Assembly (NCBI GenBank): GCA_039802865.1
Contig: JBDRXL010000001.1
Span: 1,723 to 65,722, forward strand
Source of the DNA: a candidate division WOR-3 bacterium
GTDB taxonomy: Bacteria; Hydrothermota; Hydrothermia; LBFQ01; DSFT01
Direction: 5' to 3'
DNA: 64,000 nt
Part shown: positions 2,629-58,459 of the stretch, in pieces
Numbering within the stretch: the first letter of the stretch is position 1
Layout: each line of letters starts with the position of its first letter
Notes under the pieces: model-generated
The model's input: the letters and a program-made list of their open reading frames with translations, nothing else
Told to the model about the DNA's origin: nothing
Database searches by the model: none
Made by a program: the position numbers and the translations under genes

Positions 2629-4023
2629 TTGAAAAGCTTGTTTAACTACCTCTGAATCATCAAAATGATATTTAACTCCCTTTATTTCTTGATAAGTTTC
2701 ATGACCTTTGCCCGCTATCAATACAACATCATCACTATTTGATATAGAAATTGCAAGTTTAATTGCCTTTTCTCTATCTAATTGAACAATATGAGCTTTA
2801 TTTAATCCATTTTCTATATCTTTAACAATTTGTATAGGTTCTTCATCTCTTGGATTATCACTTGTTAATATAATTATATCTGCCAATTCAGAAACTTTGC
2901 CCATCAATGGTCTTTTAGAATGGTCCCTATTTCCACCTGCTCCAAATACTAATATAATTTTCTTATTAAAAACACTTCTTAAAGTTTTTAAAACTCTATA
3001 AAGGGCATCAGGGGTATGTGCATAATCTATAAATACATTTTTTATCCTTTCAAGTCTTCCTTTTGGGGGATTTACCAAACTTAATACATCAACAATTTTA
3101 TTATCATCAAAACCAATTGCTTTTAAAATTGAATAAGAGCAAAGTAAATTATAAGCATTAAATTCACCAATGAAATTTCTATTTTCAATAATTTTATCAA
3201 AAATTTTTATTTTAAGCCCATTTGCAGAATTTTCAATAATTTCACCTTTAAATGTTGCTTTTTTATAAAAACCATAAGTTATTACTTTCCCATTGCAATT
3301 ATTTATAAAGTAATCACTATTCTCATCATCTACATTTATAATTCCTATGCTATCTTTATTTAACATTCTAAATAATTTAGCTTTTGCATCTCTATAATTT
3401 TCAAATGTTTTATGAAAATCCAAATGGTCAATTGTTAGATTTGTAAAAACCCCAATTTTAAAATCAACATCATCTACTCTATTCAATGCCAATGCATGAC
3501 TTGAAACTTCCATAACTAAAAAATTCCCACCATTCTTAAAAATCTCAAAAATATATCTTTGTAGCTCTAAGGATTGGGGAGTTGTTAATGTAGGTGTTTC
3601 TTTTCTTATAATTAAATCATTTATAACTGTTCCAAGAAGACCTGTTTTATAATTTAAATAATTCAAAGCCTGATATGTTATATAAGATGTTGTAGTTTTT
3701 CCATTAGTTCCAGTTATTCCGATTACGAAAACTTTTTTAGAAGGATAGTTATAAAATTTTGCTGAAATTTTTGAAAGGACTTCTCTTGTGTTTTGAACAA
3801 TTATTTGATTTATATTAAAATTGAATTTTCTTTCAACTACAATTGCTTTTGCTCCATTCTTAATTGCTTCTTCTACAAAGTTATGCCCATCATTTTTTTC
3901 ACCCCTTATAGCAAAAAAGACAAAATTATCTTTTACTTCTTTACTATTATAAGCTAATCCCTTTACTTCAAAATCAAAGAAATTTTCAATTTTATATTCA
4001 CTAAATAATTCTGATAGTTTCAA
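2617..4023 (-). CDS. murE: UDP-N-acetylmuramoyl-L-alanyl-D-glutamate--2,6-diaminopimelate ligase (Mur ligase family)
   Basis: Mur ligase P-loop GITGTNGKTTT. Typical length and domain order. Probable TTG start at 4021-4023. Confidence 0.8.
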   Translation of the reverse strand: MKLSELFSEYKIENFFDFEVKGLAYNSKEVKDNFVFFAIRGEKNDGHNFVEEAIKNGAKAIVVERKFNFNINQIIVQNTREVLSKISAKFYNYPSKKVFVIGITGTNGKTTTSYITYQALNYLNYKTGLLGTVINDLIIRKETPTLTTPQSLELQRYIFEIFKNGGNFLVMEVSSHALALNRVDDVDFKIGVFTNLTIDHLDFHKTFENYRDAKAKLFRMLNKDSIGIINVDDENSDYFINNCNGKVITYGFYKKATFKGEIIENSANGLKIKIFDKIIENRNFIGEFNAYNLLCSYSILKAIGFDDNKIVDVLSLVNPPKGRLERIKNVFIDYAHTPDALYRVLKTLRSVFNKKIILVFGAGGNRDHSKRPLMGKVSELADIIILTSDNPRDEEPIQIVKDIENGLNKAHIVQLDREKAIKLAISISNSDDVVLIAGKGHETYQEIKGVKYHFDDSEVVKQAFQLFY

Positions 4024-4274
4024 AGCTGTCTATAAAGTATAACAAAAATAATTCCAAAAATAAGCATTAAAAGAGAAAAATTGAAAATTAGTGAAAATGA
4101 GAAGTTAAAAGTAACTAAATCAATTTTTACATTTTCTATTCCAAATTTAATTTTATGGGTTATAAATTCACTTGCAGGATGTGGTGGAAGGTATTTCGTT
4201 ATTGCCCAATCTGTAATTGTTCCCATAATAAAACCTAAAATTAATACAAAGAAATAAGATTTAAGGGATTTCAA
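4020..4274 (-). CDS. Small hydrophobic protein (two predicted TM helices) with a TTG start 1 nt after the tRNA-Leu 3' end. Possibly not a real gene.
   Basis: ORF only. Hydrophobic composition. Its stop overlaps the murE start (TTGA). Confidence 0.25.
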   Translation of the reverse strand: MKSLKSYFFVLILGFIMGTITDWAITKYLPPHPASEFITHKIKFGIENVKIDLVTFNFSFSLIFNFSLLMLIFGIIFVILYRQL

Positions 4275-4275
4275 A

Positions 4276-4362
4276 TGCCCGGGGAGGGACTCGAACCCTC
4301 ACGCCCCTTTTGGGGGCCCAGGATTTTAAGTCCTGTGCGTCTTCCTATTCCGCCACCCGGGC
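4276..4362 (-). tRNA. tRNA-Leu (anticodon UAA), class II with a long variable arm
   Basis: The reverse complement reads GCCCGGGTGGCGGAATAGG...CAGGACTTAAAATCCTG...GGGTTCGAGTCCCTCCCCGGGCA. It has a 7-bp acceptor stem, anticodon loop CTTAAAA, a T-arm GGTTCGAGTCC, and no encoded CCA. Confidence 0.85.
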
Positions 4363-4365
4363 AAG

Positions 4366-4381
4366 TTTGAAAATTTTAAAG
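4366..4381 (-). promoter_or_regulatory. Promoter-like palindromic motif TTTGAAAATTTTAAAG 5-6 nt upstream of the tRNA-Leu 5' end
   Basis: Same motif as is found upstream of many CDS starts. Contains the -10-like hexamer TAAAAT. Confidence 0.45.
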
Positions 4382-4387
4382 CAAGAG

Positions 4388-5227
4388 TTATTTATCCTTT
4401 TTTGTTGTAAAAATAAATCCTTCATACCATACATGAGAAGGACTTGATGCTCTATTATCAAACGACACATACACAATAAGTGGTCGAGAACCTTCTCCAT
4501 TTTCATCTCTTGAACCTTTAATCAACCAATATTGCCTACCACCACTTAACATGCCATCATAATAAACATATCCCTTTGAATCGTAAATTTTAGCTCTTGT
4601 ATTAACATCATTTAGTAAGTATATATAGAGAACTAAGATATCATTTTCATCAACTACATAAAAGGTTTCAATTGAACTTTTAGTGCCTATTTTTAGATTA
4701 TAATCTCCTTTATGAAACCTCGTTTCTAACTTCTTAAATTTAGAACCATCCCAGTATAAGAGAGAAGGAACAGGTCTAGAAGAGTGTGCTATAATATAAT
4801 TACTGACATACATATCAAAATCAGAATCATAGACTTCTTCATCTTTATAATAGAGATAACCAAGTCCCTGTATATAAATATCAGTTTTTTCACCGGGTTC
4901 TTCAATTTCTATCCATTTCCCATTTCTGTATAAAAACACATGAACTATCCTTCCAATTTTAGCAGAAACTGATTCCACAATTTTTATTCCAATTTTATCT
5001 CCAATAGGAATAGTAGTTACATCTCCTATTTGACTACCACCCTCCTCGCTTTGCACCTTAAATATCACTTCTCTCTTACCGGTTGCACCATCAACTACAA
5101 CAACACTGTTTTTCCCCCATATTATCTCATCATCAACCTTATCTCCCGTTACATCTTCTATAAGCTTTTGAGCATATAAGAAAGAAAAGCTATAAAGAAG
5201 AAGAAAATATGAACTTAACTTTTTCAT
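4388..5227 (-). CDS. Secreted protein of unknown function
   Basis: N-terminal signal peptide (LLLYSFSFLYAQ). SD sequence GGAGGGG upstream. No recognisable catalytic motif. Confidence 0.5.
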   Translation of the reverse strand: MKKLSSYFLLLYSFSFLYAQKLIEDVTGDKVDDEIIWGKNSVVVVDGATGKREVIFKVQSEEGGSQIGDVTTIPIGDKIGIKIVESVSAKIGRIVHVFLYRNGKWIEIEEPGEKTDIYIQGLGYLYYKDEEVYDSDFDMYVSNYIIAHSSRPVPSLLYWDGSKFKKLETRFHKGDYNLKIGTKSSIETFYVVDENDILVLYIYLLNDVNTRAKIYDSKGYVYYDGMLSGGRQYWLIKGSRDENGEGSRPLIVYVSFDNRASSPSHVWYEGFIFTTKKDK

Positions 5228-20378: not shown

Positions 20379-21353
20379 ATGTTAACTTTATTCTTTATTT
20401 CTCAGAGTATAGAAATATATTCATCTCAAGAAGAATCTAATTATGAAGGAAAGGAAGAAACAAATGATTACTTATGGTTGTGGAAGAAAGGTAAGAAATA
20501 TACTATCTCAATAAGAATTCTTCAACCAGAAGGAGCTATTGTTGAAATTCAAAAAGAAAATAATCCAAATCCAATTTATAAAGCTGATATTCCTACAACA
20601 TATACAAAAACTAAAGTATCTTCGCGTGATGAAGGATTTTATAGAATTATTGTAAGTAAAGAAAATTATAGCTGGTCTAAGAAATTTGAAATTAAATCTG
20701 GGTATGAATATACTCTTTATGTAAAATCACTATCTACAAAGGAAGAAAAAGAAGAATATAATGATTATTATATTATAAGAAAACCATCATCAGAGACAGT
20801 TTTAAAAATAGTAGAACCAAAAGGAGCAAATGCTGAAATTTATAAAGAAAATTCCACAGTCCCTATTCATAAAAGTGATATTCCAACAAGCAAATCATTA
20901 AATGAAAGTGGATATTATAAAGTTATTGTAACAAATGAAAGTAGTAAGTGGGAAGGAAAGGTAGAAGTAAAGAAAAATTATGAGAATATATTATATGTAA
21001 AAAATCTGGCTCCAATTTCAAAACCCACTTTAAAACCAATAAGTGAAGAAAGTTTCAAAAGCCTTATTCAAAATCTAAAAAGTGAAATATCTGAATTTAC
21101 AAGAATAGAAATTTTAAAAACCGCTGTTAGTAAAAATTATTTTCTTGTAAGACATTTAGAAGAGATACTTGACCAATTTACTTCTGAGCTTAATAAAGAG
21201 GAGGTTGTAAAAATTGTTTATCCAAAAATTATAGATAAGGAAAATATACATCAAATTTTCTCAAAATTTACTTCATCCCTTTCAAAAGAAAATATAAGGG
21301 AATGGATTGAAAATTATGATAGTGGTAATGTTGAAAAGGAGGGATGGAAATGA
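20379..21353 (+). CDS. Protein with two PEGA-like beta-sandwich repeats (probably envelope-associated)
   Basis: Two internal repeats (GAIVEIQKENNP...YRIIVSKENYSWSKKFEIKSGYEYTLYVK and GANAEIYKENST...YKVIVTNESSKWEGKVEVKKNYENILYVK). Confidence 0.4.
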   Translation: MLTLFFISQSIEIYSSQEESNYEGKEETNDYLWLWKKGKKYTISIRILQPEGAIVEIQKENNPNPIYKADIPTTYTKTKVSSRDEGFYRIIVSKENYSWSKKFEIKSGYEYTLYVKSLSTKEEKEEYNDYYIIRKPSSETVLKIVEPKGANAEIYKENSTVPIHKSDIPTSKSLNESGYYKVIVTNESSKWEGKVEVKKNYENILYVKNLAPISKPTLKPISEESFKSLIQNLKSEISEFTRIEILKTAVSKNYFLVRHLEEILDQFTSELNKEEVVKIVYPKIIDKENIHQIFSKFTSSLSKENIREWIENYDSGNVEKEGWK

Positions 21354-21871
21354 GGAAAATTATTCTTTTGTTTTTAAGTAGTTGTGTTTCTGGTTATTAT
21401 GCAAAAGGTTCAAATGTGAATTTAGATTATTCAAAAAATTATAAAGTATCAATAATTCCACAATTAAAAAGTAATTATTTGAATGAAGATGATTTAAGAA
21501 AAGTTTATGAAGCATTTTATTTAGAATTATCAAGGATTAAGAATTTTACTATTGTTGAAAGAGAAAAAGTTGAGGAGATATTAAAAGAATTGAATTTTCA
21601 GTATTCAGGACTTGTAGATATTTCAACAGCAAAGGAATTTGGTAAATTAACAGGTGCAGATTTAATAGCAAGTTATGAAGTAATTTCAGCAAAACAGGAG
21701 ATGGATGGTTTTCGTGAAATTGTAATTTCAATTAAAATAATAAATGTTCAAACGGGAGAAATAGCCTATATTGGAAGGGGAAGAGGTGAAGGATATGATG
21801 ATAAAATTACGATTATAGATATGGCTGTTAGCAATTCATTACATACTTTAAAACAAACTTTTAAGAAATGA
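21344..21871 (+). CDS. Small lipoprotein with a CsgG/TolB-N/LpoB-like fold signature
   Basis: Lipobox LSSC. Motif LSRIKNFTIVEREKVEEILKELNFQYSG resembles the CsgG/FlgT-N family motif (F.VVER..L..IL.E..FQ.SG). SD sequence GGAGGG. Confidence 0.4.
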   Translation: MEMRKIILLFLSSCVSGYYAKGSNVNLDYSKNYKVSIIPQLKSNYLNEDDLRKVYEAFYLELSRIKNFTIVEREKVEEILKELNFQYSGLVDISTAKEFGKLTGADLIASYEVISAKQEMDGFREIVISIKIINVQTGEIAYIGRGRGEGYDDKITIIDMAVSNSLHTLKQTFKK

Positions 21872-22404
21872 AATATTTAATTTTATTATTAGTGTTAGGT
21901 TGTGCAAGTCAAACAAAAACAAAAAAATTAAATTATTTAGAAAATAATAAGAATTATAGAATTGCTTTAATATCATCAACAAAAAATCATAGCTCAATTT
22001 TAAATATAGTTGAAAATGAAATTGCTCAAAAACTATTAGAACTTAAAATATTTGAAGTAATAGAAAGGAAAGAGCTTGAAAAAGTATTAAATGAAATTAC
22101 ACTTACAAATGATACATTATCATTTGAGGAATTTGGAAAAGTAATAAATGCTGAACTATTGGGAATATATAATGTTGATGATTTTGTTAAGAAAAAGGAA
22201 AAAGTTTGCATTCCAGTAATATTTCATCATGAAATTATTTGTAAAGATGAAGATGTATTTGAAATAACAATTAGCTTTAAAATTATAGACTTGAAGACAT
22301 ATAAAGTTATATATGCAAATTCAGGTAGCTCAAAAGCTTATAATTTAGATGATTGTATAAAAAGTGCAATAGATGAAGTTATGTCAAAATTAGAAGGAGG
22401 TTAA
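21868..22404 (+). CDS. Small lipoprotein, paralog of the preceding gene (CsgG/TolB-N-like)
   Basis: Lipobox LGCAS. Motif LKIFEVIERKELEKVLNEITLT. 4-nt overlap with the upstream gene. Confidence 0.4.
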   Translation: MKYLILLLVLGCASQTKTKKLNYLENNKNYRIALISSTKNHSSILNIVENEIAQKLLELKIFEVIERKELEKVLNEITLTNDTLSFEEFGKVINAELLGIYNVDDFVKKKEKVCIPVIFHHEIICKDEDVFEITISFKIIDLKTYKVIYANSGSSKAYNLDDCIKSAIDEVMSKLEGG

Positions 22405-22407
22405 GCC

Positions 22408-23190
22408 ATGATGTTATTTTTATTTTTTCAAATGAGCAAGGCAGTTGAAACAATAAAGGATGGGAAAGTAGATTGGTCAAAGGGGATTGTAACTGCTAAG
22501 GGATATGGAGTTTTTGATATAAATGCAAAGAACGTAAATGCTGAAATTTTGAAAGCGCAAAGAGTAGCAGTTGTTGTCGCTCAAAGGAACTTACTTGAAA
22601 CAATAAAGGGTGTTTATATAAATTCTGAAACAATTGTTGAAGATTATATGTTAAAGAGTGATCTTATAGTTAGTAGGGTTAATGGAATTGTAAAAGGAGC
22701 AAGAATGATAGGAGAGCCTAAAATTGATAGACAAAATGGTATTGTAGAAGTTGAGCTTGCTGTTGATTTATATGGAGATAATGGATTAGTAAGTGCTATT
22801 CTTCCAGAAATTATAAAAAATACAAAAAAACAAAACTTAGATGATATTAAGGATAATCCAAGCTTTTCTGCACTTGTTTTAGATGGTTCAGGAACAAATA
22901 TAAAGCCATCACTATTTCCTAAAATTTATGATGAAAATGGAAACTTAATTTTTGATACTGCCTGGCTTATTGATGAAAATAATCCAAAAGCTCAAAGAGT
23001 TATTAAATTTGTTGAAAATTTAAATGAGATATTAAATGACCCAGAACTTAAAGATAATCCACTTGTAATCAAAATTAAATCTGTTTTAAATGGAAGGGAT
23101 ATTGTAGTTGATAAAGATAGTGCAAATAAAATAAAGTGGCTTAAAAAAGCTTGGGAGCTTGGCAAAAAAATTGTATTAACATTATTTTAA
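22408..23190 (+). CDS. LPP20/FlgP-like domain protein
   Basis: Pattern GYGV...A...A.VVAQRNLLETIKGVYINSETIVEDYML.SD.I.S.V.GIVKGA is typical of LPP20-family domains. SD sequence GGAGG. Confidence 0.4.
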   Translation: MMLFLFFQMSKAVETIKDGKVDWSKGIVTAKGYGVFDINAKNVNAEILKAQRVAVVVAQRNLLETIKGVYINSETIVEDYMLKSDLIVSRVNGIVKGARMIGEPKIDRQNGIVEVELAVDLYGDNGLVSAILPEIIKNTKKQNLDDIKDNPSFSALVLDGSGTNIKPSLFPKIYDENGNLIFDTAWLIDENNPKAQRVIKFVENLNEILNDPELKDNPLVIKIKSVLNGRDIVVDKDSANKIKWLKKAWELGKKIVLTLF

Positions 23191-23202
23191 AAGGAGGTAA
23201 TT

Positions 23203-24234
23203 ATGTTAATTTTTTTGATTTTACAAACAGAAAAAAGTATAATTGTAGAAGGAGTTTCATCTACAAATAATGTTAGCTTAGATGTAGCAAGAGATAGAGC
23301 AATTTCCGATGCTCTTAGAAATGCTGTTGAACAAGCACTTGGAACATATATTGAAAGTCAAACTATTATTGAAAATTATAATCTTATTGAAGATAATATA
23401 CTTTCAAAATCAAAAGGCTATGTTAAGAATTATAAAATTATTTCTGAAAAACAAGAGGATGGACTTTATAGAGTAAAAATAATAGCAATTGTAGATAATA
23501 AGAAAATTGAAGATGATTTATCATCATTAAAAATTCTTATTTTACAAAAAGAAAGACCAAGAATTTTAATTCTTGCAAATGAGGAATTCTTAGAAGATAT
23601 TTTAATTGAAAAATTTAGGGATAAGGAATTTCCAATTGTAGATCAAAATAAACTGAAAGAAAAATTAAAAAAGGAAGAGATAAGACTTATATTAGAAGGA
23701 GCAAAAGATAGTTTATTAGCAAGATATGCATTAAGGGAGGGAGCAGAAATTATTTTAATTGCTAAATATAATGAGAATAAGAAAAAAGTTGAGGGGTATA
23801 ATATAGATTTAAAAGAAGTTTCTATATCTGCAAGATTAATTGATCCAAGATCCGCAGAAGTATTAGCTTCTACAAGAATTGACAAATCTTATCCAAATAT
23901 AACCCAAACTATTAAAAATCAATTAGTAGATTCATTATTTAGTGTATTATTACCAAAAACAATAAAGCAATTTCAAGAAAATAATATAGTAAAAATTTAT
24001 GTTTATAATGTTAGTTTTGATGATGTTGGAAAATTAAGAGAAGTGCTAATTAATAATGTTAGAAAGGTTGATAAAATTATTTTAAGGGAATTTTTAGAAA
24101 ATAATGCTATTTTAGAATTAATAACTCCTGAAAATCCAACTTCAATAGCCCAAATTATAAAAAGTAATTTTAAAAATGTTGAAATTAGTGAAATAGGAGG
24201 AATGAATATATATGTAAGATGGAAAGGAAAATAG
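23203..24234 (+). CDS. Protein with an N-terminal LPP20/FlgP-like domain and a C-terminal extension
   Basis: Motif VARDRAISDALRNAVEQALGTYIESQTIIENYNLIEDNILSKSKGYVKNYKII. SD sequence AAGGAGG. Confidence 0.4.
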   Translation: MLIFLILQTEKSIIVEGVSSTNNVSLDVARDRAISDALRNAVEQALGTYIESQTIIENYNLIEDNILSKSKGYVKNYKIISEKQEDGLYRVKIIAIVDNKKIEDDLSSLKILILQKERPRILILANEEFLEDILIEKFRDKEFPIVDQNKLKEKLKKEEIRLILEGAKDSLLARYALREGAEIILIAKYNENKKKVEGYNIDLKEVSISARLIDPRSAEVLASTRIDKSYPNITQTIKNQLVDSLFSVLLPKTIKQFQENNIVKIYVYNVSFDDVGKLREVLINNVRKVDKIILREFLENNAILELITPENPTSIAQIIKSNFKNVEISEIGGMNIYVRWKGK

Positions 24235-31571: not shown

Positions 31572-32038
31572 GTGTTTATTTTAATCCAAAATAATTCTTG
31601 CCCATATTCAACAGGCTTTCCATTTTCAACTAATATCCTTTCAACAATACCATCCACATCACTTTCAATCTCATTCATAACTTTCATAGCTTCAATAATA
31701 CATAATACTTGTCCTTTTTTTACAAAATCTCCTTCTTTCACATAAGGTTCTGCCCCTGGTGAAGGTGCTCTATAAAATGTTCCAACTAATGGAGATCTAA
31801 TTATATGGATATTTTCCTTTTTCTCCTCTACTCTTTTTTCTTCTTTTTCTATTTTTTGTTCAATTTTTTGTTCTATAACAGGAGAAGTTGTAATTGGACT
31901 TGATATAACGGGAATTTGAACTTGATTATTTTTTGATAATTTTATTCTAAATTTTGGATTTTCCATTTCAATTTCAAGCTCACTTAATCCACTCCTTCTA
32001 AAAATTTTTATAATCCTAACAATATCTTTAAGTTTCAC
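31568..32038 (-). CDS. accB: Acetyl-CoA carboxylase biotin carboxyl carrier protein
   Basis: Biotinylation motif [11 protein letters not shown] inside a C-terminal biotinyl domain. 4-nt overlap with efp. Confidence 0.8.
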
Positions 32039-32595
32039 TTTCTTCCCACCCTTTCAATATATTTATCTTCTCTTGTATCTACCTTTATAATATCTCCAAC
32101 TTCAATAAAATATGGAACTTTAATAACTTTTCCTGTTTCTAATTTTGCAGGCTTACCACCACCTGCTACTGTATCACCCTTAAAATTAGGTTCTGTTTCA
32201 ACAACTTCAAGCTCTACAAAATTCGGTAATTCTATTCCTATTGGTCTATCATCAATATATAAAATAAAAATTTCAAGTCCTTCTTTTAAGTAATCTATAC
32301 TATTTTCAATATCTTGTTTATTAAAGTGAATTTCTTCATATGTTTGATTATCAAAGAATACATAAGTATCTTCATTTAACTTATAAGAAAATATACCCGA
32401 ATGCTTTTCAAGTGTTATTTCTTCAATTGGTTCATCTCTCTTTACAGATAAGTTATAAACATTGCCTGTTTTTAAATGTTTTACTTTTAATGAATAAGTA
32501 GTAATATCATTTGCTTTATGAACATGCTTAAAATCAAGGACCAAATAAGGCTCATCTTTATATTTTATAGCAATTCCTTTTCTTATTTCCGCCAT
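32035..32595 (-). CDS. efp: Elongation factor P with a divergent beta3-beta4 loop
   Basis: Typical 186-aa length. C-terminal [28 protein letters not shown] matches EF-P. The loop reads HKANDI instead of KPGKG. Confidence 0.7.
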
Positions 32596-32596
32596 A

Positions 32597-32631
32597 TTGA
32601 AAATTTTAAAGCAAGGTATAAAATTTCAAAA
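32597..32631. promoter_or_regulatory. Divergent intergenic region carrying two promoter-like motifs (GCTTTAAAATTTTCAAT for efp, TATAAAATTTCAAAA for rlmI)
   Basis: Each motif ends 2-4 nt before its respective start codon. Confidence 0.4.
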
Positions 32632-32634
32632 TTT

Positions 32635-33762
32635 ATGAAGAAAGTTTATATAAAAACATTTCCAGAGTATTCTATTGTTTATGATGATTTGGTCTTAAGT
32701 AGAGAAGGTGGTCCTGGTCCTGGGGATGTTGTTTTTGTATATCATAAGAGTGGGAAATTCATAGGAAGTGCTTTTTATAATCCACATTCTAGAATAAATT
32801 TAAGAATTTTCTCATTTAAAGAAGAAGACTTTGATTATGAATATATTAAGAGAACAATGAAAAGAGCTTATGATTATCGCAAAAGTTTAGGATTTGAAAA
32901 TTCATTTAGACTTGTTTATTCAGAAGTAGATTTTATGCCTGGTTTAATTATTGATAAATATCAAGATGGATTTGTTTTTCAAGTATTTTCCATAGGAATA
33001 GAAGTAAGAAAAGAGCTTATTATTAAAGCATTAATTGAATTATTTGATCCATTATTTATTCATGAAAAAAGCACAGGTCATCTAAGAAAATTAGAAGGAC
33101 TTCCTTATATAAATAGAACAGTTTATGGTGAGATTCCTGAAAATTACATTGTAAAAATTAATGATGTTAATTTTAAATTTTTTGTAGGTCAAAAAACTTC
33201 ATTATTTTTAGACCAATCTGAAAACTATTTAAAACTTTTAAATTATGTTAAAGATGGATTTGAAATTTTGGATGCATTTTGCTATGTAGGAGGATTTGGA
33301 ATTCACTTTTTAAGAAAAAATGTAAATGTTACATTTTTGGATATTTCAAAAGATGCTTTAAATATACTTCAAGAGAATTTAAAAATAAATAATATATTAG
33401 GAAGTTATGAAATCGCATGTTCGGATGTATTTGATTACTTAAAAAGTTGTAATAAAAAATTTGATTTTATAGTTCTTGACCCACCTGCATTTACAAAAAG
33501 CAAAGAAAAACTTGAAAATGCATTAAGGGCTTATGATAGAATGCATAAATTAGCAATAAATTTATTAAAGGATAATGGATATTTAGCAACATTTAGTTGT
33601 TCATTCTATGTAAAAGAAGAGCATTTATTAGAAAGTATAAAAAAAGTTTCAAAAGAAAACTTTATTATTTTAGAAACCTTATATCAATCAAAAGACCATC
33701 CTTGGACTTTAAAGTTTTCTGAAAGCTTATATTTAAAAGGATTTTTATTAAGAAAAATATAA
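32635..33762 (+). CDS. rlmI: Class I SAM-dependent rRNA (cytosine-C5) methyltransferase, RlmI/RlmK-like (PUA + MTase)
   Basis: Motif I LDAFCYVGGFGI and motif IV LDPPAF. Start taken at ATG 32635; the longer ORF-track start would overlap efp. Confidence 0.65.
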   Translation: MKKVYIKTFPEYSIVYDDLVLSREGGPGPGDVVFVYHKSGKFIGSAFYNPHSRINLRIFSFKEEDFDYEYIKRTMKRAYDYRKSLGFENSFRLVYSEVDFMPGLIIDKYQDGFVFQVFSIGIEVRKELIIKALIELFDPLFIHEKSTGHLRKLEGLPYINRTVYGEIPENYIVKINDVNFKFFVGQKTSLFLDQSENYLKLLNYVKDGFEILDAFCYVGGFGIHFLRKNVNVTFLDISKDALNILQENLKINNILGSYEIACSDVFDYLKSCNKKFDFIVLDPPAFTKSKEKLENALRAYDRMHKLAINLLKDNGYLATFSCSFYVKEEHLLESIKKVSKENFIILETLYQSKDHPWTLKFSESLYLKGFLLRKI

Positions 33763-33783: not shown

Positions 33784-34848
33784 ATGAAAAAACTTTTGAT
33801 ATTTTTAACTCTCTTGGCTTGTAATGTAAAAAAACCAGAAACCGGACCAAGTTGGGATGTATATCCAAGATTTCCAATTGGAGACTCCATCTCTTCTGCA
33901 TATGATATAGCAAGAAAATCTGCCGGCAAAGATTCCTTAAAGGTTGTAAGAATTGATGATAATTGGTTTTATTGGATAGAGGAAGATAAAAGATATAATG
34001 ATACTATAAGCTTACCATCAGATACAGTCGTTTCACTATTTGTAATAGATTTTAATAAACCAAAGGAAATTATAAGAGGTTATGATAAGGTTTATATAAA
34101 TGATTGTAAAGCAAGAATTAAGCTTTATTTTAGTAATACTTTAAATGATACAATATATGGATATTTAAAAATCACTATTCTGTTTAAAGAAAGTGGAAAT
34201 CAGGACTTCTTTATAATTCCAAATATTGTAATTCCACCTGGAAATTATAAGACAAATCCATATATTTATGAAAAGGATGGATTTAGAATTAAAGCAGAGA
34301 CTACAATTGTTCATATGGACTTTATTGCAAATAGCTCTTCAAATCCAAACTTAACAACTACCTTAGATAGCGCAATAGGTCAATTTTGGGTTCCTCCTCA
34401 TTTTGAAGCATACGATACTGTAATTGCTTATAAACTACAAGAATTTGACCAAAATCAACCAATATCAGCAGAAACATCTGGTATTAAATTTAAAAAAGTT
34501 TGGGTTGAACTTTATACAAGGCATTCCTTACCTATAAAAATTTTATCTCAGGTTTGGATTAAAGATACAGTGTTAAATGATTCAATTTTTGTTACAAACG
34601 AATACTTTAAGAGTGCTCCAAAAGACCCCAATACAGGCTATTCAACAGGTTACGTTTATGATACAATAATTGTAGTTTTAGATACAAATCAATTAAATTA
34701 CTATAATCAAAGAAGAGGAAAATTAAAAATATCTTTATTGGGTATTGCTCCAATATATACAAACTATCCTGAAAGAGCTTATATTAGAAGCAAAGATTCC
34801 CTCGAAGTTTGGGGAGATATTAAAGCAATTATAGGGATAAACCAGTAA
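33784..34848 (+). CDS. Lipoprotein of unknown function, first gene of a two-gene unit with the OmpA-family giant
   Basis: Lipobox LTLLACN. The downstream gene follows after 11 nt with a strong SD (AAGGAGG). Confidence 0.45.
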   Translation: MKKLLIFLTLLACNVKKPETGPSWDVYPRFPIGDSISSAYDIARKSAGKDSLKVVRIDDNWFYWIEEDKRYNDTISLPSDTVVSLFVIDFNKPKEIIRGYDKVYINDCKARIKLYFSNTLNDTIYGYLKITILFKESGNQDFFIIPNIVIPPGNYKTNPYIYEKDGFRIKAETTIVHMDFIANSSSNPNLTTTLDSAIGQFWVPPHFEAYDTVIAYKLQEFDQNQPISAETSGIKFKKVWVELYTRHSLPIKILSQVWIKDTVLNDSIFVTNEYFKSAPKDPNTGYSTGYVYDTIIVVLDTNQLNYYNQRRGKLKISLLGIAPIYTNYPERAYIRSKDSLEVWGDIKAIIGINQ

Positions 34849-34859
34849 GGAGGTAGAAT

Positions 34860-37712
34860 ATGTTAGTGATTTTAACATACTTTAATCCTGCTTATCCAGG
34901 ACTTTTATATTTCCCAAACTTTTACTTCTCTATTCCATACCTAAAAGCCCAAATTACGAACAATTGGTTAAATCTAAACATATATAATACTTATGTAAAT
35001 AGCTTTATAACTGATAATGATAAGAGCTATTTATTATCAGAGATAGATGGAAGAAACTTTTTCTTATGGGGATATAGTGATCTGTCAGTTTTTATAAATT
35101 ATAAGGGATTTTATCTTGGTGCTGAAAATTCTGGTGGTTCTTACTTTGCTACAAGAACAAATGACCCCATTGAATTTCTATTAAATGCTAATAATCAAGT
35201 AGATAAAATCTATGACTTATCCATAGACAAACTTCAAAGTTTAAGCTATATTCAATACTTCTTAGGCTATGCTTATAGATATAAAGATGTTATTTTTGGG
35301 TTAAGATTAAATTATTTACAAACAACTCCATATTTAGAAGTAAATAGCAATATAAATTTAGATAATGCTAAGCATTATTTGGCAAGTTTTGATACAATAA
35401 ACATTAAATATTATGCAGGAGGTGATGGATTATCTGCGGATTTAGGATTTTTATATGAGCCAAAAGGAAAAGGTTGGTTTTTAGGATTTAATATAAGAAA
35501 TTTGTTATCCAATATAAACTTTTCAAATAATTGGAAATTTCCATTTTATAAACCAGATTTTCAAAGAGATAGTATTTGGGTTATAAAGGGCTATTATCAA
35601 AAAACATCAGATACAACCGCTGAATTTGTAAAAACAGATAGCTTTTTATTATATATTTCGCCAGAAGAAGCATTTGAATTACAACTTATTGGAATGCTTG
35701 ATAGTATAAATGTTTTAAGACTTATCTTCGCAGATACATCTAATAAAAGCTTAATTGTAAATGATGCAATTTATAATAGAAATGTTATAAAAAATTATAG
35801 AATTCCACCTGTTTTTGCCTTGGATTTTGGATATAGAGATTTAACAAATAAATATGGATTTAATTTTGCTTATATTCAAGGATTTTCTGAAAGTTTTATA
35901 TCTACTAAAAAACCAAAATTCTTAGCAAGTGCATTTTATAAAATTTTCAAGTTTTTACCCCTTGGATTTTATATTTCCTTAGGTGGTAGAGAAAAATTTG
36001 AATTTGGACTTAATGGAGGACTTGATTTTAATTATTGGATATTAAACATGGGATGGGATTGGTCAAGAGGATTTAGTTATTCTGCAAAGGGACATAGAGT
36101 TTATTTAGAAAGTGCTTTTAAATCTCCAATTAAAGGAAAGCTTGAAATTAAAGTTATAGATTCTTTAACAAATAAAGTTATAGCAAATGCTGAGGTTAAT
36201 ATATTAAGAGGAACAAAAAGTTTGAGAAAATTATTCACAAATTACGAAGGATTAGTAACTTTAAATTTAGAACCAGATAAATATAAAATTGAAGTTTCGG
36301 CAAGAAATTATATTTCTAAAATTGATTCTATTGAAGTTATACCAAAAACAATAAATACAAAAATAATAAAACTAATGCCTGCTGGTGGTCTTTTAAATAT
36401 CGTTGTTCTTGATAGTATTAGTAGAGATACATTAAAGAATGTAAAAGTTGTAATAAATGACAGTTCTTATGAATATAATGGTGGAATTTTAAAAGCTTTT
36501 GCAAAGGAAGGTCCTGCACAAATTAGAGCATTTAAAGATAGATATAAAGATTATTATAGTGTTTTGGATGTAAAAATTGGAGATAGTATTAATAAGGAAA
36601 TTTTAATGTCTCCAAAATTTGCTAAGCTTTTTGTTAAAGTATTTGATGAAAAGACTAAGCAACCTCTTTTAGCAAACATTAAATTAGTAAAGAATGATAG
36701 CATTATTGCAAGTGTTCAAAGTGAAACATTAAGTATAGAACTTGAAGATGGAAATTATAAATTGCTTGTAAATAAGGAAGGATATGCACAATATAGTGAT
36801 GTATTTGAGATGAAAGGAGGAGTTGATTTAACGAAGGAAGTTTATTTAAGAAGCGATATTGGTTATTTGCTTGTTGAAGTAATAGATAAGATGACAGGAG
36901 AGCATCTAAATAATGCTCAAATTTTAATAATTTCTGAAAAAGGAGATACTACTTCAAGAGCTATTACTGATAATAGTGGCAAATATGAAACATCACTTGG
37001 TAAAGGTTTATATAAAGTAATTGCTCAAAAAGAAGAATATATACCAAATTCAGAATTTGTTCAAATTGAAAGAGATTCAAGAAACAGGATAGTGATTCCA
37101 TTAACACCAAAATTTGCTATTATATATGGACTTGTTCTTGATGCAGAAAAAGGATTTAGAGTAAAAGCAAAAATTGATATTAAGAAGGAAAATAATGTTA
37201 TAAATACAATTGAAGGAGATAGTTATTATGTAAAATTAGATGCAGGGGATTATGTTTTTGAAGTAAGAGCCAAGGATTATGCTCCAAGAATAGCCGATAT
37301 TCGTTTAAATAATGGTGAAAAATATAGAAGGGATTTCTTACTTACAAAAGTTGGACAAGTATTTACATTTAGAAATATTTACTTTGACTTTAATAAAGCT
37401 ACTATTAGAAAGGAATCTTATCCTGTCTTAGATTCAATATATCAATTCTTAGCCGAAAATCCAACAATTGTTGTAGAAGTTGCAGGACATGCTGATGAAA
37501 GAGGTGGTTATGAATACAATATAAGACTTACCCAAGCAAGAGCAAATGCAGTTGTTGATTATCTTGTAAAGAAAGGAATAGATCCTAATAGATTAATTCC
37601 AAAAGGTTATGGTTGGACTCAACCAGTTATAAAAGGAGCAAAAACAGAAAAAGAGCACCAATTAAATAGAAGAGTTGAATTTAGAATTATAAAAGAGATG
37701 GAAGGACAATAG
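34860..37712 (+). CDS. Large OmpA-family protein with an N-terminal beta-barrel-like region, five Ig-like/CarbopepD_reg-like domains and a C-terminal OmpA peptidoglycan-binding domain
   Basis: C-terminal OmpA_C motif FDFNKATIRKES...AGHADERGGYEYNIRLTQARANAV. Repeated ~80-aa modules (KLEIKVIDSLTNKVIANAEVNI..., LLNIVVLDSISRDTL..., KLFVKVFDEKTKQPL..., YLLVEVIDKMTGEHL..., IIYGLVLDAEKGF...). Confidence 0.6.
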   Translation: MLVILTYFNPAYPGLLYFPNFYFSIPYLKAQITNNWLNLNIYNTYVNSFITDNDKSYLLSEIDGRNFFLWGYSDLSVFINYKGFYLGAENSGGSYFATRTNDPIEFLLNANNQVDKIYDLSIDKLQSLSYIQYFLGYAYRYKDVIFGLRLNYLQTTPYLEVNSNINLDNAKHYLASFDTINIKYYAGGDGLSADLGFLYEPKGKGWFLGFNIRNLLSNINFSNNWKFPFYKPDFQRDSIWVIKGYYQKTSDTTAEFVKTDSFLLYISPEEAFELQLIGMLDSINVLRLIFADTSNKSLIVNDAIYNRNVIKNYRIPPVFALDFGYRDLTNKYGFNFAYIQGFSESFISTKKPKFLASAFYKIFKFLPLGFYISLGGREKFEFGLNGGLDFNYWILNMGWDWSRGFSYSAKGHRVYLESAFKSPIKGKLEIKVIDSLTNKVIANAEVNILRGTKSLRKLFTNYEGLVTLNLEPDKYKIEVSARNYISKIDSIEVIPKTINTKIIKLMPAGGLLNIVVLDSISRDTLKNVKVVINDSSYEYNGGILKAFAKEGPAQIRAFKDRYKDYYSVLDVKIGDSINKEILMSPKFAKLFVKVFDEKTKQPLLANIKLVKNDSIIASVQSETLSIELEDGNYKLLVNKEGYAQYSDVFEMKGGVDLTKEVYLRSDIGYLLVEVIDKMTGEHLNNAQILIISEKGDTTSRAITDNSGKYETSLGKGLYKVIAQKEEYIPNSEFVQIERDSRNRIVIPLTPKFAIIYGLVLDAEKGFRVKAKIDIKKENNVINTIEGDSYYVKLDAGDYVFEVRAKDYAPRIADIRLNNGEKYRRDFLLTKVGQVFTFRNIYFDFNKATIRKESYPVLDSIYQFLAENPTIVVEVAGHADERGGYEYNIRLTQARANAVVDYLVKKGIDPNRLIPKGYGWTQPVIKGAKTEKEHQLNRRVEFRIIKEMEGQ

Positions 37713-37740: not shown

Positions 37741-38649
37741 ATGATTGAAATTGAAAAAATAGAAAATTTTATATCTATGACAAAAGTTGATTATAATAAC
37801 TATAAAGAATTTTTAAAAAATCGCAATTATGTTATAGTTGAAAATGTGAAATTGGAAATTGGGAGAAATTGGAAAATAAAAGAATTCGAACCAAAACATT
37901 TTGAATTAGAAACTACCAATGTCTGGTCCTTTCCCAATAGAGGTAAATGGGCAACGCATTATCTCAACTCAAAATATAGAGGTAATTGGGCACCTCAGGT
38001 TGTTAGAAATCTACTTATAAGATACACTAAGGAGGGGGATTGGGTTTTAGATCCTTTCGTTGGTTCGGGCACAACTTTAATAGAAGCAAAACTCCTCAGA
38101 AGAAATGCTATTGGTATAGATATTAATTATGAAGCGGTAATACTTACCTTGGATAGATTAAATTTTGATATGCCTCCTAACTTATTAGAAAATGATAAAA
38201 AACCAATAATAGAAGTTTATGTTGGCGATGCACGAAATTTAGATAAGATAGAGAATGAATCTATTGACTTTATTGCTGCCCATCCTCCATATGTGGATAT
38301 AATAGGTTATAGTAAAAATTCAAATTCCAAAATAGATGGAGATTTATCAAAAATACATTCTGTAGAAGATTTTTGCATAGAAATGAAAAAAGTTGCTAAG
38401 GAAATGTATAGAGTTCTGAAACCACATAAATTTTGTGCTATTTTGATAGGTGATACAAGAAGGAAAAAATATCATATTCCGATATCTTTCAAGGTTTTAA
38501 ATGTTTTTCTTGAAGTAGGATTTAAATTAAAGGAGGATATAATAAAAATTCAGCATAGAATGAAAACAACACCTTTATGGGTAAAGAGAAGTAAAGAGCT
38601 TAATTTCCTTCTTCTTCAATACGAACACTTATTTGTATTTGAAAAATGA
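37741..38649 (+). CDS. SAM-dependent DNA methyltransferase (N6-adenine or N4-cytosine), motif I before motif IV
   Basis: AdoMet-binding VLDPFVGSGTT...IGIDIN..A, then catalytic AAHPPY about 80 aa downstream. Confidence 0.6.
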   Translation: MIEIEKIENFISMTKVDYNNYKEFLKNRNYVIVENVKLEIGRNWKIKEFEPKHFELETTNVWSFPNRGKWATHYLNSKYRGNWAPQVVRNLLIRYTKEGDWVLDPFVGSGTTLIEAKLLRRNAIGIDINYEAVILTLDRLNFDMPPNLLENDKKPIIEVYVGDARNLDKIENESIDFIAAHPPYVDIIGYSKNSNSKIDGDLSKIHSVEDFCIEMKKVAKEMYRVLKPHKFCAILIGDTRRKKYHIPISFKVLNVFLEVGFKLKEDIIKIQHRMKTTPLWVKRSKELNFLLLQYEHLFVFEK

Positions 38650-39206
38650 GGCAAGTTGACTTGGAAAAGTTTATGTCTTTTAAAAGAGGAAATTCATTAG
38701 AAAAACCTTTAAGTGTTGTGAAAATTAATGATAATTATATTTTAGCGATATATAAGGGTAAAAAGAGTAAAGCTGACATTTTAATTCGTTATAGGCAAAA
38801 ACTAAAAAATAACAAGTGGAGCAATATAAGAACACCGAAACATATTCACTGGATTGTTGATATTTTAATGAAATTAAGCAGGGAACCAGAACTTACCAAA
38901 AAGTTTTTAGATACATTAATGAATATCTGGGATACTCTTAAACCCTTAAATGAAAAAACAAGGGATAAATTGAAATTAGAAGACTTATTTAAATATGATA
39001 ATAAAATTTTAAATGAATTTCGGGAACTAAGTAAATATGGGGAGTATAATATTAAATTCTTAATACTTCTAGCTAAACTTTTAATGATTCAAGAAAAAAC
39101 TAATTATCCCAAAGGAAAAATTTTTCAAAAGCTAATTGAAAAGCTAAAAGAAGGAGAAGATTTATTTAGTATATTGCAAATAGCAACTTTAAGGAAGATG
39201 AGTTAA
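38646..39206 (+). CDS. Hypothetical 186-aa protein translationally coupled to the methyltransferase; candidate restriction or control partner, unverified
   Basis: ATGA overlap with the MTase stop. No recognisable nuclease motif. Confidence 0.3.
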   Translation: MRQVDLEKFMSFKRGNSLEKPLSVVKINDNYILAIYKGKKSKADILIRYRQKLKNNKWSNIRTPKHIHWIVDILMKLSREPELTKKFLDTLMNIWDTLKPLNEKTRDKLKLEDLFKYDNKILNEFRELSKYGEYNIKFLILLAKLLMIQEKTNYPKGKIFQKLIEKLKEGEDLFSILQIATLRKMS

Positions 39207-50958: not shown

Positions 50959-52148
50959 TTACCTCCTTATATACCAATCTATATAATTTTTTATCCCTTC
51001 TGCTATAGCCTTTGCTAACTTATTTTGATACTCTTCATCCATTAAAAGTTTTGCCTCCTCTGGATTTGAAATAAATCCAATTTCTATAAGTATAGAAGGG
51101 GCATAAACTTTCCTTAAAACATAAAATCCTGCTTGCTTTATTCCCCTATCATTTCTTCCATCTTTCAATTTTTCATGAACAAAGAATGCTAACTTTTGAG
51201 ATTCCTTTAAATAAGCATTTTGTAAAATATCTGAAACAATAAATTTCAGAATATCACTTTCCTCTACTTCATACTTAATAACTGAATTTTCAAGAGCTTC
51301 AACCGCTCTTTCTTCACTTGTTCTTGCAGTTGATAGAAAGTAAGTTTCTGGTCCAAATGCATTATCTACTTCTGAATAATTACAATGAATACTTACAAAC
51401 AATTTAGCATTATACCTTTTTGCTATTTCTGCTCTCTCGCTTAAAGATAAGAATATATCTTCTTCCCTTGTTAATATCACTTTAAACCCATACCCCATTT
51501 ACCAATTGCTCCTGGGTCCTTTCCACCATGTCCAGGATCAATAACAATATAACCAAAATTACCATATGAGTAAAGTATAAATTTTAAAACATAATTTTCT
51601 TTAATTTTTTTATAAGAGCCGTATTTAGTAGAAACGAAAATTTTAAAGAATGCCCCCTCTTTTGTATGGAAAATTGCGATAGAATCAATAATTCCACTAT
51701 CTCCTTTTATAAAATTAAATTTTGGATAAAAACCATCTGGAAGATGTATTAAGATAGCATTTTCTTCAAGCCATAATTGTTCTTTTGTATTTCTTGATAA
51801 TGTAAAAATTAAAACACAACTATCACTATTTTCAATAATTTGAAATTTCTTAATTGTTTCAATTGCCCTAAAAAGCTCATTTGATTTATAATCCCAAAAT
51901 ATCGGTATAGATGTTAGCCTATAAATTATTAAAGCGATATCTTTGCCATTTACATAGATTTTATTATCCCTAATCTCATATAAAAACTTAAAAGTTTTAT
52001 CCTTATGCCTAAATATTTTATTTTGAAAATCAAAATAAATTGTGTCATCTTTGTAGATTGCTAAATTATTCAAGAGCTTTATTGAATAAACGGATAATAT
52101 ACTATCTAATGGAAATAAGATGCCCATCATCTTTCGCTTATATACCAA
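50959..52148 (-). pseudogene. N-acetylmuramoyl-L-alanine amidase (Amidase_3) with an N-terminal domain. A 64-bp deletion relative to the neighbouring paralog frameshifts it into two ORFs (51477-52148 and 50959-51498).
   Basis: After ...GHGGKDPGAIGKWG the frame hits MGLK-stop. The catalytic part YGFKVILTREEDIFLSLSERAEIAKRYNAKLFVSIHCNY continues in another frame. Compare with the intact copy at 52127-52705. Confidence 0.5.
51375..51573. repeat. Tract of ~200 bp identical to 52423-52686 apart from a 64-bp indel (gene-conversion tract between amidase paralogs)
   Basis: Identity verified by eye (tacaatgaatacttacaaacaatttagcattatacctttttgctatttctgctctctcgcttaaagataagaatatatcttcttcccttgttaatatcactttaaaccca...ccatttaccaattgctcctgggtcctttccaccatgtccaggatcaataacaatataaccaaaattaccatatgagtaaa). 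Confidence 0.7.
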
Positions 52149-52705
52149 TTTACATATTCCCTTATCCCTTCCGCTATACCTCTTGCTAATAAGTATTGAT
52201 AATTTTTGTCTATAAGAAGATTTGCTTCTTCTGGGTTTGAAACATATCCTATCTCTATTATAACAGAAGGAATATAAATATTTCTTAAAAGGTAAAAATT
52301 CGCCTTTGTTATACCTCTACTTTTTGTAAATTCATTTATTCTTTGATTTATGAAAAATGCTAGTTTTCTTGATTCATTAGATAAGAAGAATACTTCAGGT
52401 CCTTTGATATTACTCATCTCAAAATAATTACAATGAATACTTACAAACAATTTAGCATTATACCTTTTTGCTATTTCTGCTCTCTCGCTTAAAGATAAGA
52501 ATATATCTTCTTCCCTTGTTAATATCACTTTAAACCCATACTCCTTTTTTAAAATATTTGCTATTTTTTTGCTTACTGATAATGTAATATCTTTCTCCTT
52601 TATACCCCATTTACCAATTGCTCCTGGGTCCTTTCCACCATGTCCAGGATCAATAACAATATAACCAAAATTACCATATGAGTAAAAGTTCAAAAAAAAC
52701 AACAT
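52127..52705 (-). CDS. N-acetylmuramoyl-L-alanine amidase, catalytic (Amidase_3) domain only (192 aa), no evident signal peptide
   Basis: Motif IVIDPGHGGKDPGAIG...KVILTREED...LFVSIHCNY...GYVSNPEEA. Confidence 0.55.
   Translation of the reverse strand: MLFFLNFYSYGNFGYIVIDPGHGGKDPGAIGKWGIKEKDITLSVSKKIANILKKEYGFKVILTREEDIFLSLSERAEIAKRYNAKLFVSIHCNYFEMSNIKGPEVFFLSNESRKLAFFINQRINEFTKSRGITKANFYLLRNIYIPSVIIEIGYVSNPEEANLLIDKNYQYLLARGIAEGIREYVNWYISER
52423..52686. repeat. Partner of the identical tract at 51375-51573, and contains the extra 64 bp (52541-52604)
   Basis: See the partner repeat. Confidence 0.7.
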
Positions 52706-57337: not shown

Positions 57338-58459
57338 TTACCCCCCTACTTTAAAAATACTTGTATATGCTTCACTTAAACCTTTTAATATGTTATATTC
57401 AGAAAAGGTTGATAAAACAGCTCCAACAATAATAATTATAATAATTAACAATTTTGCAATATCTTCTGATTTAATTGTTCCAATTTCGGAAGGATTTTTG
57501 CTTAAATAAGCAGATGCAGCATAAAGCTCTTCACCAATAAGAGTATAATCACAAGATACTATAAAGAATGGTAATTGTGTAATTGCAGTAGTTCCAGCGA
57601 TATTTATAGCTCCTACATTATAAGAAGTCTCCGCCATTAACAAACTTTCTGCATAAAAGTAACCTTGATAAAAAGCTGCTCCTGGTCTTTCTCTAATTAC
57701 AATACCATTAAATCCAGCAGCAAATCCAAATTGTTCCGTTGTTAAAAACATTATATTATCTTCTTTATACAAATCTGGTCTTCCTGCTTCTGTAAAACCC
57801 TCTTTAACTGCTTCTCTTGAAGCAATCATTATAAGAGGGTCATTATTTGGAACAATTAAATCCATACCATAATTTGCAACTTTCCTAGCAACATATTTTA
57901 ATATTGCAATACCTGCTATAATGGAAGGATCACTTAAAGTTCCTATGCCTGTTGTATAAATTATTGGTCTTCCCATTTCTGTTGCCCTACCAACTGCATC
58001 ATCTATTGCTTCAAGCCCCGCAATTTTCCTAATATAAGGCACTTTACCCAACCTAGCAGAATAATAATAATAAAAGAAAAGAAGACCAAATACTAAAAGG
58101 AATACAAGCACAGGAAGCTTTTTAAAGTCAAAGTAAGGTTTATTTTCATTTTTATTTTTAATTAATAAAACAACAGGTTCAGACCACTTCGTATCCGCAT
58201 AAGTTGTATCATCAGAATAAGTTCTAATAAGATAGCTATATTTGACATTTGGTTTTACTGTTGTATCTATGAATTCCGTTTTATCCGTTTGTCCTAAAAG
58301 AAGTGGATGTTCCTTAGAGTTTTCTTCATCCGCTCTATAAACTTCATATTTTTTAATTTCCACAGGTGGAGCTTTCCACTTTAATATAACTTTATTTTCC
58401 TCCACCTTTATATTCAAGCTTTCTGCTTGAAAAGCGATATTAAATATAATGAAAAACAT
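57338..58459 (-). CDS. Membrane protein with an N-terminal FN3-like extracytoplasmic domain and a large second domain (operon member 1 of 4)
   Basis: FN3-like KVILKWKAPPVEIKKYEVYRAD...YSYLIRTY, a TM helix with poly-Tyr (FFYYYYS), a Gly-rich domain and a C-terminal TM helix. Confidence 0.4.
   Translation of the reverse strand: MFFIIFNIAFQAESLNIKVEENKVILKWKAPPVEIKKYEVYRADEENSKEHPLLLGQTDKTEFIDTTVKPNVKYSYLIRTYSDDTTYADTKWSEPVVLLIKNKNENKPYFDFKKLPVLVFLLVFGLLFFYYYYSARLGKVPYIRKIAGLEAIDDAVGRATEMGRPIIYTTGIGTLSDPSIIAGIAILKYVARKVANYGMDLIVPNNDPLIMIASREAVKEGFTEAGRPDLYKEDNIMFLTTEQFGFAAGFNGIVIRERPGAAFYQGYFYAESLLMAETSYNVGAINIAGTTAITQLPFFIVSCDYTLIGEELYAASAYLSKNPSEIGTIKSEDIAKLLIIIIIIVGAVLSTFSEYNILKGLSEAYTSIFKVGG

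Follow-up and report, generated by a model that had tools for sequence, protein, structure and literature searches.

What might an OmpA-type protein do with some 400 residues between its barrel and its peptidoglycan-binding domain, and how could it leave the cytoplasm with only a few hydrophobic residues at its N-terminus? These questions are raised by a locus in a thermophilic and little-studied candidate division WOR-3 bacterium of the Hydrothermia (GenBank assembly GCA_039802865.1, contig JBDRXL010000001.1, forward strand positions 1,723 to 65,722), which we analysed as one stretch of 64,000 nucleotides, referred to here as the window. Positions 33784-37712 of the window, with a GC content of about 26%, contain two open reading frames (ORFs) on the plus strand and not one, the first for a lipoprotein and the second, 11 nucleotides (nt) further on, for a 950-residue protein (Table 1). 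We consider it reasonably likely that these two genes form an envelope cassette specific to WOR-3/Hydrothermia, and that the larger protein tethers the outer membrane to the peptidoglycan through a stalk of conserved length.

Domain architecture of the 950-residue protein

An earlier reading of this DNA, made without database searches and called here the sequence-only reading, had assigned the C-terminal ~110 residues to an OmpA_C domain, and this is borne out. Residues 841-932 match Pfam OmpA (PF00691) with 81.7 bits against a cut-off of 27.2, and the AlphaFold model has an alpha/beta OmpA_C domain at 834-946. The closest solved relatives are the C-terminal domain of PorE (6TOP, E 4e-24) and E. 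coli Pal (E 4e-18), and in a Foldseek search the last domain matched Pal, OmpA, OprF and PorE, with template modelling scores of 0.75-0.84 normalised to the Pal and OmpA C-domains. The peptidoglycan-binding motifs GHADERG and ARANAV align column for column with GHADERG and RRANAV of Pal. In Pal and AbOmpA the Asp and Arg of these motifs hold the carboxylate of diaminopimelate (DAP); the equivalent residues here, Asp879 and Arg894, are invariant in 14 orthologs. Between the two subclades of close orthologs the domain is 75% identical.

The N-terminal region, previously described as barrel-like, proved to be a FadL-fold barrel homologous to the DUF5723 outer membrane proteins, and the possibility of a soluble N-terminal domain in a cytoplasmic protein falls away with this result. 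The domain is divergent: ten N-terminal domains scanned gave no DUF5723 (PF18990) match in Pfam at E≤10, there was no FadL/Toluene_X (PF03349) match, and no sequence match to a solved barrel appeared among the PDB matches listed for profiles A2 and A4 (for A4 the search returned OmpA_C matches, the best 60 of 87 being listed). A profile of ten orthologous N-terminal domains found 207 relatives at E≤1e-3 among 1.84 billion representative proteins, mostly stand-alone proteins of ~415-430 residues with some of 620-848 residues. The DUF5723 cut-off was passed by 14 of the 20 relatives scanned, and some showed weak TraF_2 or FadL/Toluene_X matches. Aligned with hhalign to twenty genuine DUF5723 proteins, query residues 8-424 pair with template residues 50-420 over 364 columns (probability 100%, E 4e-42). 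The closest structural match is FadL, with TodX close behind; the likeness to this family is one of fold only, and about 40 N-terminal residues are absent relative to the barrel's relatives. In the literature searched DUF5723 is mentioned solely as a passing annotation. A segment of ~65 residues in the barrel (residues 235-300, window 35562-35759) is absent from DUF5723 relatives, has a predicted local distance difference test score (pLDDT) of 36-57 and, at 33% identity, is the least conserved part between the subclades; an extracellular loop particular to the lineage is the probable identity of this segment.

Between the barrel and the OmpA_C domain lie five β-sandwich modules. This is the number proposed in the sequence-only reading, which had described them as CarbopepD_reg-like and ~80-90 residues long, and both AlphaFold and tiling with hidden Markov models (HMMs) support it, although by sequence only modules 1 and 4 pass the family threshold. 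At full length the protein scores 80 bits against CarboxypepD_reg (PF13620, cut-off 32.3). Scanned singly, module 1 (32.8 bits) and module 4 (39.2 bits) are above the cut-off and module 5 is below it (19 bits); module 3 has a weak PEGA match only, and module 2 scanned alone has no Pfam match. The full-length AlphaFold model places all-beta modules at 426-505, 509-583, 587-663, 667-750 and 752-828, with pLDDT values of ~80-87 and linkers of 0-3 residues, several of which end in proline. The modules are too diverged for a BLASTP self-comparison of the stalk, which found no repeats. HMMs built for each module nevertheless tile exactly five times in every 5-module ortholog, and between the two subclades the modules are 35-53% identical with lengths that agree within 2 residues. 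Foldseek matched the tandem modules to rod-like stalks of the CnaB/prealbumin type, namely the TIE protein of B. anthracis, the pilins BcpA and SpaA, and SdrD.

Table 1. Features of the two-gene locus, in window coordinates (aa, amino acids)
Feature	Protein position	Window position	Strand	Description and basis
Partner lipoprotein gene		33784..34848	+	354 aa; signal peptide and lipobox MKKLLIFLTLLA-C, Cys13
Shine-Dalgarno site AAGGAGGT		34847..34854	+	Spacing to the ATG of the 950-aa gene, 5 nt; overlap with the stop codon of the lipoprotein gene
Barrel-stalk-OmpA_C gene		34860..37712	+	950 aa
N-terminus MLVILTYF-NPA		34860..34892	+	8-residue uncharged hydrophobic leader abutting the NPA motif of FadL/DUF5723 barrels
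Outer-membrane β-barrel domain	aa 1-423	34860..36128	+	FadL fold, divergent DUF5723
β-sandwich module 1	aa 424-506	36129..36377	+	CarboxypepD_reg-like; Pfam 9e-8; AlphaFold strands 426-505; HMM tiling
β-sandwich module 2	aa 507-585	36378..36614	+	No Pfam match; AlphaFold; HMM tiling
β-sandwich module 3	aa 586-665	36615..36854	+	Weak PEGA-like match; AlphaFold; HMM tiling
β-sandwich module 4	aa 666-750	36855..37109	+	CarboxypepD_reg, Pfam 9e-10; AlphaFold; HMM tiling
β-sandwich module 5	aa 751-830	37110..37349	+	CarboxypepD_reg-like; AlphaFold; HMM tiling
OmpA_C peptidoglycan-binding domain and stop codon	aa 831-950	37350..37712	+	Pfam OmpA 5e-23

Distribution of three-module and five-module forms

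Close homologs of the protein number only 16, all from candidate division WOR-3. When one genome per GTDB species was scanned, the family turned up in genomes of WOR-3, Hydrothermia and Hydrothermales and nowhere else; in other phyla the matches were to OmpA_C domains only. Reconstruction of the ORFs and HMM tiling showed that the family exists in two forms. The 5-module form is present in five species genomes in addition to the window, and at least 17 further WOR-3 genomes have a 3-module form of 780-809 residues. No two of the loci recovered share an assembly; among them each genome thus has a single copy, of one form or the other. The 3-module proteins (for example P0026, P0028 and those of loci L011-L030) are homologous to the window protein from end to end, with 34-40% identity, and are preceded by the same lipoprotein. 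Their architecture is DUF5723-(CarboxypepD_reg)x3-OmpA, with no counterpart of module 2, and they differ from the 5-module form in having a canonical signal peptide of 17-20 residues and a barrel N-tail ~20-30 residues longer. All are annotated solely as 'OmpA family protein'.

A second OmpA_C family is also present in WOR-3 (L025 and L031-L035, matches at ~4001-5100). Its members are 636-664 residues long, with a different and shorter N-terminal region and canonical signal peptides, and in the three loci that were tiled they carry two to three of the same β-sandwich modules. Stalks of β-sandwich domains before OmpA_C seem to be a general theme in the phylum.

The partner lipoprotein

The upstream gene encodes a protein that begins MKKLLIFLTLLAC and carries a lipobox, LLA-C13; the sequence-only reading had correctly named a lipoprotein as the partner. 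The lipobox cysteine is invariant in 18 aligned homologs; among the upstream ORFs, 19 of 23 contain the lipobox pattern, and three of the other four show a cysteine at the end of the hydrophobic stretch. A lipoprotein of ~340-356 residues lies directly upstream of the barrel gene in 23 of 27 WOR-3 loci, with a gap of -4 to +12 nt, and at least one of the four loci that lack it is limited by a contig end. The overlap of the barrel gene's AAGGAGGT site with the stop codon of the lipoprotein gene indicates translational coupling of the pair. Identity to the window lipoprotein is 38-76% within the window's clade and 13-24% in other WOR-3 lineages, and profile and sequence searches of Pfam, NCBIfam and the PDB gave no match for the family. 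The conserved neighbour of the pair is an RlmI-like RNA methyltransferase gene, and the order methyltransferase, lipoprotein, OmpA-like gene is kept in two orthologous loci, L001 and L002.

Start codon and N-terminal leader

Judged by a basic n-region, an h-region of at least 10 residues and an AXA-type cleavage site, the 950-residue protein has no canonical Sec signal peptide. The first Lys or Arg comes no earlier than residue 29, and just 8 hydrophobic residues in a row precede N-P-A. The sequence-only reading had noticed this and suggested that the start might be wrong. We find that the annotated start codon is correct. An in-frame TAG lies two codons upstream of the ATG, so the ORF cannot be extended in that direction, and L001 and L002 have Shine-Dalgarno sites equivalent to that of the window, TAGGAGGT and GGGAGGTGG, so that a strong site precedes the start in all three lineages checked. 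In-frame stops occur 1-2 codons upstream in both the window and L001; in L002, where the two ORFs overlap, the frame is open slightly further upstream and GGGAGGTGG marks the same start. All 16 orthologs, down to 46% identity, share this start and N-terminus and are 948-958 residues long. In L007, from the WOR-3 isolate SKYB27, an open in-frame extension of 17 codons (MGRYQSYNRYKSIKETT, L007 3938-3988) precedes the conserved start; it does not resemble a signal sequence, and its translation is improbable.

The lack of a canonical signal peptide is likewise common to the 16 orthologs, each of which has a methionine and 7-9 hydrophobic residues before an invariant NPA at residues 9-11. In 127 relatives a normal signal peptide and N-tail come first, so that the median position of NPA is 50, and the 3-module WOR-3 orthologs have normal MKK-type signal peptides. 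Taken with the Shine-Dalgarno sites and the upstream stops, the position of NPA far downstream in relatives means that the 5-module clade has really lost about 40 N-terminal residues, comprising the signal peptide and the barrel N-tail.

Other genes in the window have similar beginnings. A FlgT_N-like protein (23203..24234, +) starts MLIFLILQTEKS, reading MLIFLILQ as an 8-residue uncharged leader, behind a strong AAGGAGGT, and an ORF at 22408..23190 (+) starts MMLFLFFQMSKA behind AAGGAGGT. Short uncharged hydrophobic N-termini are also seen in a DUF4476 protein (20379-21353, +) and a fn3-DUF6754 protein (57338-58459, -), and an Amidase_3 protein (52127-52705, -), in which the domain starts at residue 16, has a short uncharged N-terminus. 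These five predicted extracytoplasmic proteins begin with 6-9 uncharged hydrophobic residues and have no basic n-region. Homologs of the FlgT_N-like protein from other lineages, including metagenome-assembled genomes labelled Proteobacteria and Calditrichaeota, have canonical signal peptides of 20-25 residues before the same mature start; in the WOR-3/Hydrothermales orthologs this stretch is just 8-13 residues long, without a basic residue in the shortest. Because the leaders of this family are short in WOR-3/Hydrothermales and canonical elsewhere, very short leaders look like a trait of the window's lineage, which would probably explain the missing signal peptide, although such sequence comparisons are suggestive and not proof. 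If the trait is lineage-wide, these leaders may be too short for standard signal-peptide predictors, and the predicted secretomes of WOR-3 would then be distorted.

A proposed tether between outer membrane and cell wall

We propose that the FadL-fold (DUF5723-type) barrel holds the 950-residue protein in the outer membrane, having probably been exported by way of its short uncharged hydrophobic N-terminus. By analogy with FadL, the C-terminal end of the barrel would face the periplasm, and five tightly linked transthyretin/CarboxypepD_reg-like modules of ~80 residues would project inward from it. The OmpA_C domain at the end of the chain is predicted to bind DAP-type peptidoglycan non-covalently, and the protein would in this way staple membrane and wall together, with the length-conserved stalk fixing how far apart they lie. 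The upstream lipoprotein would be an obligate partner, most likely docking on the barrel. Modules of this type are ~3.5-4 nm each, and from typical domain sizes we estimate a reach of up to ~17-20 nm for the stalk, compared with ~10-12 nm for the 3-module form. A putative role as spacer or ruler fits the data, as the linkers are short, the module lengths are nearly fixed despite divergence, the number of modules is either three or five, and the fold is stalk-like. The only WOR-3 strain in culture is a diderm with a 'thick cell wall' and genes for DAP-type peptidoglycan (PMC12285271), an envelope that is compatible with the tether model and gives no distances.

Several points weigh against this proposal. 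FadL-fold barrels usually transport substrates or dock partners, and tethering may be secondary. The full-length AlphaFold model has a predicted template modelling score of 0.35; the relative orientations of its domains are thus unreliable, and the rigidity of the stalk is not established. Concerning export, a leader of 8 residues that lacks both a basic residue and a clear signal-peptidase site differs greatly from the Sec signals known to function. Cytoplasmic proteins of the window also start with short hydrophobic strands, and the residues before NPA are hydrophobic in relatives too (AIFY, SIYF); to judge from these sequences, part of the 'leader' may belong to the mature protein.

A different possibility is that the barrel and the lipoprotein form a docking platform for a larger outer membrane machine, in which case the stalk and OmpA_C would anchor the machine to the wall, with this, and not the spacing of the envelope, as the main role. 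Precedents exist in the BamG-BamH pair of the Bacteroidota β-barrel assembly machinery (BAM) and in PorP-PorE of the type IX secretion system (T9SS). In Bacteroidota, the lipoprotein BamH is bound by BamG through its lipidated N-terminus, and a putative operon has been described for bamG2-bamH2 (PMC12578637, PMC12611786). At our locus the last module and OmpA_C match PorE and CHU_0125 (120-152 bits; 6TOP at 4e-24), and a gene with a Por_Secre_tail domain is found near the L001 ortholog. However, neither BAM nor T9SS genes adjoin the pair, which has the RNA methyltransferase as its conserved neighbour, and the lipoprotein has no detectable similarity to anything known. BamG is a member of the FadL/Toluene_X family with an extended, conserved N-tail, whereas the barrel here is of the DUF5723 type and its N-tail is truncated; the TPR and β-propeller domains of PorE are absent, and the NCBIfam scores are far below the cut-offs of 600 and 620. 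We regard the docking platform as unlikely, if still worth keeping in mind.

It is also conceivable that the protein is mainly a FadL-type channel for hydrophobic compounds, with a peptidoglycan anchor that merely stabilises it and a lipoprotein that acts as a substrate-binding cap, as in SusCD-like pairs. The ranking of FadL and then TodX as structural matches, the invariant NPA hatch motif and the weak Toluene_X matches in two relatives would agree with such a role. A 400-residue stalk is, however, hard to justify for a channel, and about 30 residues of the N-terminal hatch and tail that FadL channels use for gating are absent in the window's clade. The neighbourhoods examined contain no genes for lipid or aromatic catabolism, and the gene occurs once in each WOR-3 assembly recovered, in a housekeeping-like synteny, all of which makes a channel quite improbable.

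Finally, the idea that the start is mis-called, that the gene is decaying or that lipoprotein and barrel are fused by frameshifting or readthrough, so that the missing signal peptide is an artefact, could draw on that very absence and on the 11 nt between the two ORFs, but it is extremely improbable and already contradicted by the data, given the well-spaced Shine-Dalgarno site, the upstream stops (or, in L002, the GGGAGGTGG site), the N-terminus and length common to all 16 orthologs, the inter-ORF gap and relative frame that vary among orthologs, with extra stops intervening and no conserved recoding route, and the situation in the 3-module relatives, where lipoprotein and barrel are clearly separate proteins that both carry a signal peptide.

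The tether model can be taken one step further. The locus might record a natural molecular ruler, in which the window's clade widened the gap between outer membrane and peptidoglycan by two modules (~7-8 nm), trimmed the barrel N-tail and moved to uncharged Sec leaders of 8-12 residues. We consider this extension rather unlikely; if it is true, it would imply a lineage-wide shortening of signal peptides that standard predictors would miss.

Neighbouring genes

Upstream of the lipoprotein, the RlmI-like PUA/SAM methyltransferase ORF (32518-33762, +) overlaps an opposite-strand ORF (32035-32595) by 78 nt when read from its first start codon; its true start is probably internal, at MKKVYIKTF, about residue 40. 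Directly downstream of the barrel gene (37741-39206, +) is an N6/N4 DNA methylase gene that overlaps a 186-residue ORF without a family match, and the two could form a restriction-modification pair. At the orthologous loci L001 and L002 the OmpA-like gene is followed instead by a gene for an unrelated protein of 527-529 residues and no known family, and the methylase region of the window therefore looks like a local insertion. Further upstream, positions 20379-24234 (+) hold a compact envelope cluster made up of the DUF4476 protein, two small CsgG/LpoB-like lipoproteins, a 260-residue protein and the FlgT_N-like protein. A scan for promoters and terminators was uninformative at 26% GC, with 44 promoter-like sites found and 39 expected by chance.

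Comparison with known systems

In OmpA of E. coli and OprF of P. aeruginosa, too, an N-terminal outer membrane barrel is combined with a non-covalent peptidoglycan anchor, the C-terminal OmpA_C domain. The barrel of OmpA is 8-stranded, its hinge is short, at ~15-20 residues, and no lipoprotein partners it; the OprF barrel is also of the small OmpA type. The protein described here has instead a FadL-fold barrel of ~420 residues and a spacer of ~400 residues in five domains.

A homologous C-terminal pair of CarboxypepD_reg and OmpA_C is found in PorE (PG1058) and in CHU_0125 of Cytophaga hutchinsonii. PorE is built like CHU_0125; it has one CarboxypepD_reg module, and its barrel partner, PorP, is a protein in its own right. 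These two are the top NCBIfam matches of the 950-residue protein, and membership of either family was considered and rejected. The scores are 120 bits for PorE (NF052230, cut-off 600) and 152 bits for CHU_0125 (NF053607, cut-off 620), the models align to the C-terminal ~180 residues only, and the protein has no TPR or WD40 match in Pfam. CHU_0125, which is built of TPR, PD40/WD40 and OmpA_C domains, is annotated as a peptidoglycan-associated lipoprotein, and its loss leads to outer membrane defects and about 6-fold more vesicles (PMC5891637).

FadL, TodX, BamG and PorV are 14-stranded barrels of the FadL fold, from which the barrel here differs in that its N-tail is truncated and not extended and that a peptidoglycan anchor follows at the C-terminus. 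The features that define BamG, a FadL-family barrel with a conserved N-terminal extension through a lateral opening and an association with BamA and BamH (PMC12578637, PMC12611786), were not found in this protein. OmpM/SlpA of the Negativicutes and Deinococcus, Ompalpha of Thermotoga and Braun's lipoprotein (Lpp) are also stalked or tethering proteins. Their spacers are coiled coils, and they bind the wall through SLH domains or a covalent link, in contrast to the chain of β-sandwiches with an OmpA_C head seen here. For diderms, tests of how the distance between outer membrane and wall is controlled have mostly used Lpp of E. coli. A stalk that differs by whole domains from one sister lineage to another yields a direct prediction for cryo-electron tomography, and the tether would suggest a plausible role, the first so far, for some members of the uncharacterised DUF5723 barrel family and for a new family of lipoproteins. 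Set beside these systems, the protein is best read as an uncharacterised and unusually long OmpA-type tether, a new combination of parts and not a new kind of system, in which a DUF5723/FadL-fold barrel is joined with a β-sandwich rod of variable module number, an OmpA_C domain and a dedicated lipoprotein.

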